DNA of 64,000 nucleotides from a virus (taxonomy: Duplodnaviria > Heunggongvirae > Uroviricota > Caudoviricetes): the IMG/VR virus record IMGVR_UViG_2713896909_000009, positions 32,001 through 96,000 of that record. One strand, 5' to 3'. How positions within the stretch are numbered: the first letter of the stretch is position 1; every line of letters begins with the position of its first letter. Of the stretch, positions 15,332-18,026 are shown in pieces. The notes beneath the pieces are model-generated. The model had not been told where the DNA came from, made no database searches, and saw nothing but the letters and a program-made list of their open reading frames with translations. Made by a program: the position numbers and the translations under genes.

Positions 15332-15765
15332 TACAGATAATCTTCCACACGAAGACCTAAACGACGGCCTACTTCTTCCAGTACTTTGTGTTCTGCTGGC
15401 TCGATTTCACCGTCCGCTTCTGCAATCGTCAGCATGTTAACGAATACTTCTTCCGCTTCTTTTGGGTCGTTTTTGATATCTTCAATTTCGCGAAGGATAT
15501 TCATGCGACCAACACGGAAGCCAGCTTCCAGTTGCTCGGTAAAGCGGGTAATTGTTGCGGTAATTTCGTTACCAAAATGACTAAGACGCGGATTAGAGCG
15601 GATAAGCTGATCAAGTTTCGCTGTTTCTTCTTTTTCGATTTCACCATCAGCGGCAGACACCAACAAACAGCCACCGATAATGGCCTCCATCAGATCGCGA
15701 TTCTCAACTTTTTTCAGCTCTACTTTTGCAGAAGCGACTTTCTTGCCGAACAATTTACCGAACAT
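15331..15765 (-). CDS. tciA: TerB-like tellurite-resistance-family protein
   Basis: ORF track 144 aa; two acidic TerB-like repeats (SAADGEIEKEE, AEADGEIEPAE). Confidence 0.65.
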   Translation of the reverse strand: MFGKLFGKKVASAKVELKKVENRDLMEAIIGGCLLVSAADGEIEKEETAKLDQLIRSNPRLSHFGNEITATITRFTEQLEAGFRVGRMNILREIEDIKNDPKEAEEVFVNMLTIAEADGEIEPAEHKVLEEVGRRLGLRVEDYL

Positions 15766-15914
15766 TGGTTATCCCTCAATAAAAGTGACATATTTATTAG
15801 ATTGCGGTGCCGGGTGCCTCCCGGTGACGTTAACCAGTTAACAATTAACGCCGGAATGTTTAATCATCAAGGAGGATTGTTTTAACTGTTCCGCGTGCGC
15901 TTAGCCGCATTCAC

Positions 15915-16001
15915 CACAACGGAAAGAGCATTTATGGCTCGCATCGCGGGAAAAAGCCCACGGTAGAGAGTCGAACTCTACAAATACTCTTACCTGTTGT
16001 G
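15915..16001 (-). repeat. Long imperfect hairpin unit A of a local repeat family
   Basis: Arms CACAACGGAAAGAG / CTCTTACCTGTTGTG flank about 55 nt containing a T-arm-like GAGTCGAACTC. Confidence 0.45.
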
Positions 16002-16054
16002 TGCTCCGTTTCGTGGAGCTAACGGCGGAGTAATCATCCGCCTCAAATTTATAA

Positions 16055-16468
16055 TTAACTGCTTGCTGATGGGTCATATTCGGTTAATTTAATCAACCGC
16101 GAATCAAGAGCTTTTCGATACTCAATCATGCTTTCGAGCTGATTTTGTAATTCCAACTGATTGTCCAAGCCCATGGCGAGGAAGTTATCTGTTCCGATAA
16201 ATCGAACTAGCTTATTTATGCGCTGGCACAGCTGAGCACGTTCGATAATCATTCGCTTGTGGTATTCTTCCAGACCATCAATTTTGCCCAACGGAGCTGC
16301 TATTTCATTAAATTCACGAAGTGGTATTTTTAGTTCGTTACCGAACACATCTACAACATCAATTTCAGATGCATTTTCTTTCGAAACTTTATCGACCTGA
16401 TAACTGGTGCTAACCACTAAAGAAATAACAAACTGCTCTTTCTGCATAATTACCGTTCTCGCACTCAT
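16055..16468 (-). CDS. Hypothetical protein
   Basis: ORF track 137 aa. Confidence 0.5.
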   Translation of the reverse strand: MSARTVIMQKEQFVISLVVSTSYQVDKVSKENASEIDVVDVFGNELKIPLREFNEIAAPLGKIDGLEEYHKRMIIERAQLCQRINKLVRFIGTDNFLAMGLDNQLELQNQLESMIEYRKALDSRLIKLTEYDPSASS

Positions 16469-16635
16469 TGGTGACAGTTTCTAAATAAATTGTGGTGGTC
16501 GGCGCTGATCTCCGACTGCGCCTCTTTTTGTTCATAACCCATAAGGCCGGTCAGTGCGCTTGATGACTGAGGCATCGATATTTACTACGCCGCCTCGTTG
16601 CCATAGGGCGGACTTGCGCGCCAGCAACACGCATT

Positions 16636-16735
16636 CACCACAATGTTGAGAACACTGGTTGTCACGCGGCAACGCAACATTTATTCATAGGTTGGGAAAT
16701 GAACCCGTTACGCCAATGTTCTCAACGTTGTAGTG
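16636..16735 (-). repeat. Hairpin unit A-prime (inverted repeat about 20 nt, spacer about 55 nt)
   Basis: CACAATGTTGAGAACACTGG versus CCAATGTTCTCAACGTTGTAG; shares GCATTCACCACAA lead with units A and C. Confidence 0.4.
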
Positions 16736-16871
16736 CCGGTTACGGTTCCGGCCAGGCCTCTTCCTCAACGGGGTGTTCTCCGTACGGACTACCGTTTATT
16801 GGTCGTTCCTGCGGTTTATGTTGTGAAGCCAGATGCTTATCTTCTGGTTGCTTCAAAGAGCTGCACTTCAT

Positions 16872-16939
16872 CACAACGGTAAGAGCACTCGATGCATTTA
16901 AGCCAAGCCCCATAAGGGAGAATGCCCTTACCTGTTGTG
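16872..16939 (-). repeat. Hairpin unit B
   Basis: CACAACGGTAAG ... CTTACCTGTTGTG. Confidence 0.45.
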
Positions 16940-17067
16940 TTGTGATGACCGGTGCTGATCTCCGGCTTGCGGTTATTTCAGACTCTCACGGGCGTTTAAT
17001 TGCCCCGCCGGACAGCTCTTTTCCGCAATAGCTGCAATGTCTTTCGCGCATCAGCCTGCGCATTCAT

Positions 17068-17154
17068 CACAACGGTAAGGGTACTTCGTAGGGATTCGAA
17101 CCCTCTGCCAAGCTCGGCGATCTCCGACGTCGCAAAATACCCTTACCTGTTGTG
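17068..17154 (-). repeat. Hairpin unit C with tRNA T-arm-like core
   Basis: CACAACGGTAAGGGTA ... TACCCTTACCTGTTGTG flanking GGGATTCGAACCC; directly 3' of the interrupted tRNA-like gene. Confidence 0.45.
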
Positions 17155-17155
17155 C

Positions 17156-17288
17156 TGGTGCCGGTTAACGGATTCGAACCGCTGACCTCTGGCCTAACAT
17201 CGAATCGTTGTCATTTGACCAGCAAGGCTGTCTACCGAAGTAGAAACGATGCTTTGGCTCTCGTGCTCTCCCACTGAGCTAAACCGGC
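17156..17288 (-). tRNA. tRNA-like gene with about 57-nt insertion between D-arm and T-arm (possible interrupted or pseudo tRNA; Thr expected from P1 order)
   Basis: 5' GCCGGTT-TA-GCTCAGTGGGAGAGC and 3' GGTC-AGCGGTTCGAATCCGTT-AACCGGC-A-CCA form acceptor, D and T arms; the middle 75 nt contain a CUAC-UUCG-GUAG hairpin and no clear anticodon arm. Confidence 0.35.
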
Positions 17289-17290
17289 AT

Positions 17291-17366
17291 TGGCGATGGT
17301 GGGTGGATTCGAACCACCGACCAGTTAGTTAACAGCCAACTGCTCTAACCGCTGAGCTACACCATC
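17291..17366 (-). tRNA. tRNA-Asn (GUU)
   Basis: 76-nt cloverleaf GATGGTG..GCTCAGCGGTTAGAGC..GTTGG-CTGTTAA-CTAAC..GGTTCGAATCC..CACCATCGCCA. Confidence 0.85.
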
Positions 17367-17570
17367 ACTTGCCGGGTACGTCTCCGGCGAGGGCTTCCAC
17401 CTCCGTATGCTTTTCGGCGCACCGCGCCCTGGCTGCAATTCGGTAACAGGGGATGCATAACCCTGGCTTCCAGCGTGATTAGCGCTTTCAGCATGACGGG
17501 ATATACCCGTAAATTCGTGGAACTGTACCCAAAGTGCTGTTAAGCACCGCTGTTACGCTGAAAAGAAGAC

Positions 17571-17650
17571 GCAACAGGAAAGGACGCTGACCAACAGATG
17601 GCCCCTTCTCGTTCATCTGGTTAATCACACCAGCGCCCTTACCTGTTGTG
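17571..17650 (-). repeat. Hairpin unit D
   Basis: GCAACAGGAAAGG ... CCCTTACCTGTTGTG. Confidence 0.4.
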
Positions 17651-17825: not shown

Positions 17826-17856
17826 ACCCTGAAAAAACGCCCACCCGAAGATGGGC
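17826..17856 (-). terminator. Rho-independent terminator downstream of dmt
   Basis: Minus-strand hairpin GCCCA...UGGGC followed by a T-run (revcomp of GAAAAAAC). Confidence 0.45.
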
Positions 17857-18026
17857 AAACAGGATGTAAGCTCGTTACGCATTTCGGTATTGCCACTTAG
17901 GCGTATGGTCAACCTGGCAACTCGGCGTCATGAGGGGGAAGGAGTCACTACCCCGCCATACTTGCCGCCGCGCCTGTCGCGGCTAACAGCTAAATCGCTC
18001 TATAAATCACGATTCATTGAAACCAT

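Follow-up and report, generated by a model that had tools for sequence, protein, structure and literature searches.

What are the long imperfect hairpins that stand among the transfer RNA (tRNA) genes of a P1-like phage-plasmid, and what could they be for? The question is raised by a stretch of 64,000 nucleotides (nt), positions 32,001 to 96,000 of the IMG/VR virus record IMGVR_UViG_2713896909_000009 (the window from here on). An initial annotation, made from the letters alone, had noticed five such hairpins in it, which we call units U1 to U5, and had offered them as processing or termination structures of a tRNA operon, as decayed tRNA copies or as small structured RNAs. Their structure, strand, covariation, family membership and genomic context show them to be real RNA stem-loops belonging to a hairpin family that is widespread in prophages. 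On balance, they probably act as processing sites of the RNase III type. Within the literature that could be searched, the family, the tRNA-shaped modules that accompany it and its spread through the Enterobacterales appear to be undescribed; a search for the conserved sequence strings and for the P1 ban transcriptome found no prior description.

The hairpin interval of the window aligns with the region between dmt and ban of P1, and the five units sit in the untranslated leader, about 2.2 kb long, of the C1-repressed ban operon. All elements of that operon lie on the strand that is minus in the window, which is also the RNA sense strand of the units. The arms of all five hairpins are present where they had been placed at the outset. 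When each unit was folded alone and compared with 200 dinucleotide shuffles, the minus strand gave z-scores between -4.0 and -6.0, with 0 of the 200 shuffles as good; the plus strand gave weaker folds, with z-scores from -3.0 to -4.5 and a loss in stability of 4 to 12.5 kcal/mol. U1 starts from a base of 6 base pairs (bp), above which follow a bulged A, two pairs, a U.U mismatch and about ten further pairs. U3 folds in the same way, with its base extended to 10 bp (UCAUCACAAC/GUUGUGAUGA), and these two folds match those of the Qin and Rac prophages discussed below; in U4 and U5 the mismatch or the bulge is paired. The arms of U2 are 23 nt long and 87% complementary. The stems measure 18-23 bp and lie in the ban operon on the minus strand, so that the units offer what an RNase III substrate needs, namely about two turns of double-stranded RNA in the orientation of the transcript.

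Are these hairpins peculiar to the window? The 15-nt tail that follows units on their 3' side, GUUGUGRUGAAUGCG on the RNA strand, was found in at least 120 viral contigs, and in 55 distinct cases a long hairpin stands directly before it. From the arms and tails of relatives we built a covariance model, R1, in which the apical parts were replaced by a short linker; since raw pattern matches in large collections are often due to chance, they were filtered with the model. The family consensus (RNA strand) reads CACAAC-(A)-GG-U-AAGAGCAUUG, then 3-130 nt that are specific to each copy, then CAGUGCUCUU-U-CC-GUUGUG. Spelled out, the stem begins with a 6-bp base (CAYAAC/GUUGUG) and continues with a 1-nt bulge, two pairs, a central mismatch (mostly U.U) and about 10 covarying pairs, and it is capped by an apical domain of 3-130 nt. 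Run over the whole window, R1 matches at the five units only, all on the minus strand; its matches to U2 (tail only, in a register without the bulge) and to U5 are partial.

In an alignment of 68 distinct viral copies, pairing across the 19 stem pairs reaches 92.4%; sliding the 3' partner by 1-3 columns lowers it to 40-61%. Changes on both sides occur in 13 of the 19 pairs, and no shuffle out of 500 reaches the observed values. An independent set of Enterobacterales with one genome per species gives 90.7% pairing and covariation in 12 of the 13 inner pairs. In that set the mid-stem position is unpaired in 24 of 37 non-gap rows (U.U in 18 of the rows), and a single-nucleotide bulge often lies two pairs below the central mismatch. 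Copies confirmed by the model come from Escherichia, Klebsiella, Citrobacter, Kluyvera, Pseudocitrobacter, Pantoea, Erwinia, Rosenbergiella, Serratia, Rahnella and Rouxiella, while Buttiauxella gave weaker matches only (about 23-26 bits). P1-like, lambdoid and Stx phages, IME207 and the Qin and Rac prophages of Escherichia coli K-12 are among the hosts of the family; the phi80 early region gave no model match. Comparison with the dmt-ban interval of P1 and its relatives, which had been proposed as a check, shows compensatory and wobble changes in the stems of U1 and U5. Between P1 and the window, U1 shows changes from A-U to G-C, C-G to U.G and U-A to C-G; between P1 and D6, U5 shows a compensatory change from C-G to U-A and keeps its central mismatch (U.U and C.A, respectively). 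No Rfam family covers the hairpins, at gathering or at permissive thresholds, in the window and 15 related loci.

Pairs of the G.U type are abundant: in the 68 viral copies, U.G is found in 34 sequences at one pair and in 19 at another. Each of these would be an A.C mismatch on the opposite strand, and the paired form is therefore the RNA of the transcribed strand and not a DNA cruciform.

What the hairpins do is best approached through the members in K-12, found by searching its cryptic prophages with R1. The Qin unit lies at NC_000913.3 1649173-1649257, between ydfC and dicF. DicF is derived from a polycistronic dicBF transcript, from which RNase E makes a 53-nt form (bioRxiv 10.1101/2023.04.14.536235). 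The 5' end of a 190-nt DicF is made by RNase III, and this form is lost in an rnc mutant, as are upstream bands that contain ydfA (bioRxiv 10.1101/2023.04.14.536235, for the 190-nt form confirming Faubladier et al. 1990). The loss of the ydfA bands would be expected if a hairpin left by RNase III on the upstream product protects that product. Counting 190 nt back from the annotated DicF 3' end leads to about position 1649245, which is inside the 3' arm of the Qin unit (1649238-1649257) and a few nucleotides from its central mismatch. In Rac, where the order is unit, KilS small RNA with its terminator, module and kilR (NC_000913.3 1411000-1436000, fetched as locus L362, there about 7230-7570 on the minus strand), the annotated KilS 5' end coincides with the start of the 3' arm of the unit. 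Both units fold as U1 does: base helix, bulge, two pairs, mismatch and about ten pairs.

The surroundings agree as well. The segment after the Qin unit is homologous to the 'dicF-like region' of P1, and directly after the DicF terminator a type-B tail and an STnc100-like module form the dicB leader. An order of unit, small RNA with terminator, STnc100-like module and cell-division-inhibitor gene is common to Qin, Rac and P1, where it is represented by U1, the module M3 and tciA. Given the segments shared with the dicB and kilR operons, the P1 ban leader is a rearranged relative of these. In Qin this layout is seen at 17174-17600 (+) of locus L361. A further weak Qin member (16.9 bits) was seen in the late region between cspB and essQ (L361 9142-9224, minus strand), which indicates that units of the family also occur in late-operon leaders of lambdoid prophages.

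Hairpins of this general kind are familiar from other phages. At the RNase III sites of the phage T7 R1.1 type and of the lambda N leader, irregular hairpins of about 20 bp separate the units of a polycistronic phage transcript, and an internal loop in the middle of the stem favours cleavage of a single strand, which leaves a protective hairpin at the 3' end. These sites have no sequence relationship to the P1 family, which differs from them in its hypervariable apical domain and its strongly conserved base.

It is the RNase III site at the Qin homologue that leads to the processing or insulator reading of the P1 units, and from Qin and the T7-type sites together we infer that the units of P1 are cleaved. 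A stem of about 20 bp, broken by a bulge and a central mismatch, would be the substrate of host RNase III, which would cut it near the central mismatch, probably for the most part in the 3' strand, as happens at T7-type sites that have an internal loop. The units sit at borders between tRNAs, small-RNA-like modules and messenger RNAs (mRNAs). If they are cleaved, the polycistronic leader would fall into autonomous pieces: tRNAs, tRNA-shaped small-RNA modules (the STnc100-like tciA leader, for example) and mRNAs. Upstream of the cut, the product would still end in a hairpin that protects its 3' side; downstream, the new 5' end would bear a monophosphate and be open to trimming by RNase E or RNase P. 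Small structured RNAs, the last of the three initial suggestions, are possible as cleavage products of the units. Secondary roles would not exclude this one: stable stems may keep neighbouring modules from misfolding, the units may bar the entry of Rho into a long untranslated leader, and at the DNA level the repeated arms act as patches of homology for the exchange of cassettes between phages.

Several points weigh against this reading. Cleavage in P1 is argued from Qin and not from RNA ends of P1 itself. The Qin unit scores only 20 bits with R1 (E 4.8e-5), and its RNase III site is placed from a length of 190 nt estimated on gels, not from a sequence coordinate (in the published numbering the cleavage is at '813/814'). 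The alignments behind the pair counts were fitted to the structure of the model, so that the numbers lean towards structure; the slid controls and the comparisons of orthologues are independent of that fitting. Across genera, the sequence of base, bulge and stem is kept more strictly than a generic RNase III substrate would require. Such excess conservation may come from recent horizontal spread or from a second, sequence-specific partner. Finally, RNase III cleavage leaves the tRNA-like pieces in the apical domains unexplained.

Could the hairpins do without specific cleavage? As purely structural insulators or shields against Rho, they would keep the leader folded and the modules independent and would prevent Rho from loading. 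The leader, with one short gene in its ~2.2 kb before tciA, and the great stability of the stems would suit such a role. So would the commonest unit of the family, which has a loop of 7 nt only and shows that the core function can do without the apical part. We think this explanation unlikely, as it accounts neither for the conserved bulge and central mismatch nor for the RNase III-dependent end that maps to the Qin unit.

Termination is a separate matter. About one third of the family members lie at most 16 nt downstream of a U-run, and in many cases an intrinsic terminator distinct from the unit lies immediately upstream. In Stx-type phages, RNA synthesis from pL begins with the tail motif, an arrangement that brings to mind cis-acting antitermination RNAs such as put of HK022. 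For the units themselves to be terminators or put-like elements is nevertheless extremely improbable: no U-tract follows any of the five stems on the minus strand, and an antiterminator placed after a terminator cannot act on that terminator. The only plausible operon terminator in a scan of the minus strand (17838-17861) is outside the units, as is a weak 7-bp terminator-like match at 15669-15685, inside the tciA open reading frame (ORF). A comparison with the put and early region of HK022 found no sequence similarity to the units. Thus, of the pair of functions first suggested, processing is kept by homology with Qin and termination is dropped.

RNase III-type processing would have more than tRNAs and mRNAs to release. 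Three of the five units (U4, U2 and U1) are followed by a closed, tRNA-shaped module, here M1, M2 and M3. The complement of GUUGUGRUGA, (Y)CAYCACAAC, is found 61-200 nt downstream in 88 of 246 distinct tails, against 4.5% of random windows, and the R and Y positions of the closing helix covary (G:C 77, A:U 6, G:U 3, A:C 2). In 76 of the 88, the closing strand directly adjoins a small hairpin, YCGG-N6-11-CCGR. A second one follows two nucleotides after the 5' strand, in the form GCGC-AGGCUGAU-GCGC or GCG-GCUMAG-CGC. The closing helix and its two arms are arranged as acceptor stem, D arm and T arm are in a tRNA, but without tRNA-like sequences in the loops.

M1 contains the D-arm-like hairpin GCGC-AGGCUGAU-GCGC and, in the position of the T arm, CCGG-AGAUCAGCA-CCGG. 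With about 98% identity, M1 matches the segment that lambdoid and Stx phages transcribe first from pL; in Stx-type phages this opening module of the M1 type precedes a terminator, after which come a unit and the first early gene. M2 is closed by pairing of the tail AUUGUGGUGAAUGCG with CCACCACAA (16490-16498), directly next to which stands the small hairpin UCGGAGAUCAGCGCCGA. M3, which starts with the tail GUGGUGAAUGCGGCUAAGCGC, is homologous to the 5' untranslated regions (5' UTRs) of dicB and kilR in K-12. Over 15803-15918, the stretch that shares this homology, it scores 47.3 bits with the Rfam model of STnc100 (RF02076; gathering score 47), which is related to PasD small RNAs; this model describes the module and not the hairpin, and the hairpins do not reach its gathering score. 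Elsewhere among phages, matches to the STnc100 model begin within the hairpin and extend over tail and module. Two smaller observations of the initial annotation hold and are explained by these modules. They are the sequence GCATTCA(C/T)CACAA at the start of three units, which precedes U1, U2 and U4 on the plus strand and whose 'GCATTCA' prefix is meant here, and the recurring GCTGATCTCCG-like motif, located at 16503-16513, 16953-16963 and 17117-17127.

The apical domains raise a different question. Among 43 unique interiors of at least 20 nt there are at least 36 unrelated types, and some of them resemble pieces of tRNA. The two T-arm-like loops noticed at first are indeed there: U4 carries the canonical T-arm sequence AGGG-UUCGAAU-CCCU (GGGATTCGAACCC) and U1 the hairpin GUAGAG-UUCGACU-CUCUAC (GAGTCGAACTC). 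The apical domain of U2 holds GGGUUCAUUUCCCAACC, a degenerate form of a motif that resembles the anticodon arm of initiator tRNA and that is also found in U1 and U2 of P1. Compared with the background of the fetched loci, T-arm-like hairpins are enriched about 27-fold in apical domains and the motif GGG-N2-3-CAUWH-CC about 43-fold. A run of 14 nt, CGGGCTCATAACCC, occurs letter for letter in the E. coli initiator tRNA (metZ), in its anticodon stem-loop, and the outer stem that closes the initiator-anticodon-like motif covaries in at least 10 variants. The sub-motif AC-GGG-YUCAUAW-CCC-AAUC was seen in 61 of 362 fetched loci; examples are 16690-16712 (-) of the window, 2476-2490 and 2755-2769 of locus L001 and 3898-3912 of locus L126.

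Are the units, then, tRNA genes in decay? The T-arm-like hairpins of U1 and U4 and the anticodon-arm-like hairpin of U2 would be natural remnants of such genes, and relatives carry real tRNAs in equivalent slots (tRNA-Ser in D6, tRNA-Tyr in Ro157c2). A pseudogene would hardly be expected to have long stems that covary, are selected for pairing and are conserved across a bacterial order, and the units form no cloverleaf. In the window, ARAGORN and the Rfam model RF00005 report tRNA-Met(cat) and tRNA-Asn only and leave the units unmatched; ARAGORN at low stringency with the intron option gave implausible or spurious models only. We regard the pseudogene explanation as very improbable. A cloverleaf built from U1, the small hairpin upstream of it and the tail, with the long hairpin as anticodon arm, was also tried: only five of seven acceptor pairs form, the arrangement was not reproduced in other loci, and this fold was rejected. 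That small hairpin recurs in relatives with a covarying stem (e.g. GCCAC/GUGGC).

Alternatively, the apical domains may be what matters. The stem would then be a scaffold or stalk from which stable mimics of tRNA pieces (T arm, initiator anticodon arm) are released as decoys or ligands for host or defence factors. The enrichment of both motifs, the identity of CGGGCTCATAACCC to initiator tRNA inside a covarying outer stem, and the linkage of units to phage tRNA genes speak for this. Such pieces are found in only about a quarter of the apical types, the types are as diverse as stated above, and the commonest unit is almost without an apical domain. A search for antisense targets of the five apical domains in the window found nothing above chance. 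All in all, this appears quite unlikely. A bolder version, which we consider a long shot, takes the stem as a processing stalk from which RNase III frees a diversifying library of small mimics of tRNA pieces, acting as decoys or ligands of factors that recognise tRNA. If true, the targets might be VapC-type toxins that cleave initiator tRNA, other anticodon nucleases, or the ribosomal P site with IF3, and the P1 ban leader with its lambdoid counterparts would be an RNA-based locus for counter-defence or host takeover beside the phage tRNA genes. The tRNA-like pieces could also be recombination debris from neighbouring tRNA genes.

Such neighbours are common. In about 12 of 60 unit-bearing loci there are tRNA clusters on the same strand within a few hundred nucleotides of a unit, mostly at no more than about 200 nt. 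Units abut tRNA 3' ends (U4, which begins 1 nt after the CCA of the tRNA-Thr-like gene, and the unit at tRNA-Ser of D6) as well as tRNA 5' ends, and at some loci the tRNA starts inside the GUUGUG base of the unit. The slots that hold bona fide tRNAs in D6 and Ro157c2 are equivalent to those of the modules. In IME207 the order is promoter, unit, M1-type module, tRNA-Ser and tRNA-Arg; another locus (L120) has three units followed by a module and four tRNAs.

Cargo of different kinds is found between the same repeats in the window, D6 and Ro157c2, and among P1 relatives the differences between cassettes start and stop at the repeats. A deletion that runs from the left arm of U3 to that of U4, or the reverse, has removed U3 and M1 from P1 NC_005856. 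The window has an ORF of 137 amino acids between U2/M2 and U1, which is absent from P1 NC_005856 and OP279344 and represents an accessory cassette; in relatives the locus holds different cargo, such as an SPFH-domain protein, a serine protease or extra tRNAs, which suggests a hotspot for accessory genes. The presence of this ORF, which matches the Pfam family crAss001_48, also means that the first impression of no convincing protein does not hold for the whole interval.

It could be argued from such mosaics that the units are recombination sites acting at the DNA level, either similar to integron attC sites or linkers for the shuffling of modules, which bound mobile cassettes. The deletion of U3 and M1, the extra ORF of the window, the cargo of D6 and Ro157c2 and the near identity of a 135-nt module in P1-like and lambdoid phages would all fit. 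An attC site is, like the P1 units, an imperfect hairpin with a conserved base, an extra-helical base and a terminal structure of very variable length. The attC consensus is not present in the P1 units: read directly, CACAAC/GTTGTG does not fit the R'' (RYYYAAC) and R' (GTTRRRY) boxes. No integron integrase (IntI) is associated with the units, and the loci inspected offered no integrase context. Furthermore, the pairing of the P1 units needs G.U pairs that would be A.C on the other strand, so that it works as RNA only, and the units always run with transcription. Ordinary homologous recombination at repeated RNA elements explains the mosaic, and dedicated recombination sites are highly unlikely. 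T4-type phages have repeated stem-loop regulatory elements, the PeSLs, reportedly described by Arbiol et al. in 2010, which flank accessory cassettes and promote modular shuffling. Unlike the P1 units, in which no promoter is evident, PeSLs contain an early promoter, and the phages that carry them are virulent and T4-like.

Returning to the units as processing sites, we can now place them in their operon (Table 1). The window, which also carries the C4 and c4-a1b1 RNAs, follows the P1 annotation, in which the ban operon comprises the P1ban promoter, the 'dicF-like region', trnA(Asn), trnT(Thr), tciA, tciB, tciC, trnI (tRNA-Ile) and ban. In the promoter-proximal dicF-like segment, the 5' half is homologous to the Qin DicF precursor and the 3' (seed) part differs; its strong terminator stands between P1ban and the downstream tRNAs and ban. 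The tRNA-Thr-like gene has intact acceptor, D and T arms, yet neither ARAGORN nor the Rfam tRNA model calls it. Variants that are 93-100% identical exist in 11 P1-like plasmids (E. albertii, Salmonella, E. coli), and the gene resembles a natural 'tRNA scaffold' that carries another RNA.

Table 1. Hairpin units, modules and neighbouring features of the ban operon leader (positions in the window; z, fold z-score on the minus strand; bits, score with covariance model R1)
Feature	Position	Strand	z	Bits	Remarks
Module M3	15803..15920	-			After U1; STnc100-like 5' UTR of tciA
Hairpin U1	15915..16001	-	-4.0	57.3	
Small hairpin	16003..16019	-			GCUCC-ACGAAAC-GGAGC; directly 5' of U1
ORF of 137 amino acids	16055..16468	-			Pfam crAss001_48, E 5.6e-12
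Module M2	16490..16644	-			After U2
Hairpin U2	16636..16735	-	-4.2	16.5	23-bp stem in a register without bulge
Hairpin U3	16867..16948	-	-5.1	33.5	First noted as 16872-16939; base extends outward
Module M1	16939..17073	-			After U4; 135 nt; closed by GUUGUGAUGA/UCAUCACAAC
Hairpin U4	17068..17154	-	-5.9	71.1	
tRNA-Thr-like gene	17156..17288	-			Anticodon arm replaced or interrupted by a structured insert (about 58 nt)
tRNA-Asn (GTT)	17291..17366	-			From tRNA search
Leader hairpin	17371..17388	-			GCCGG-AGACGUAC-CCGGC; just 5' of tRNA-Asn; same type as the hairpin at module 3' ends; read directly
Hairpin U5	17571..17650	-	-6.0	11.5	20-bp stem with two mismatches
Promoter-proximal dicF-like segment	17830..17990	-			Just after C1-controlled P1ban; ends in the intrinsic terminator 17838-17861

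The P1 reference annotates two plus-strand ORFs, upl and plp, antisense over the hairpins. Together they correspond to 2483-3052 of locus L001, or roughly 15950-17185 (+) of the window, and run antisense across U1-U4 and part of trnT. A newer P1 record has no upl or plp calls and differs from the reference by a 196-nt indel inside 'plp'. Probably, upl and plp are not genes.

The known system that comes nearest is the Qin site at which RNase III acts upstream of DicF (Faubladier et al. 1990; Ragunathan et al. 2023 preprint). As in the P1 units, its 6-7-bp base ends in GUUGUG and is followed by a 1-nt bulge, two pairs, a 1x1 mismatch and a helix of about 10 bp, and it shares with P1 the layout of the operon and the flanking dicF-like RNA and STnc100-like leader. 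Both stand in a repressor-controlled early operon of a temperate phage. P1 differs in having five copies interleaved with tRNA genes; the similarity is modest at 20 bits, and in P1 it is by analogy that cleavage is expected.

A reading at the level of RNA replaces the doubtful ORFs upl and plp in the dmt-ban interval of P1, and the single characterised RNase III site upstream of DicF becomes one copy of a family of temperate phages that extends through a bacterial order and is missing from Rfam. The tRNA-mimicking apical domains are an unexplained feature that deserves experiment. One modular architecture, made of a hairpin, a tRNA or tRNA-shaped module and cargo, ties together P1, Qin, Rac, the Stx phages, STnc100, PasD, DicF and KilS. 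It makes testable predictions about how phage tRNAs and prophage small RNAs mature and how accessory cassettes are swapped.

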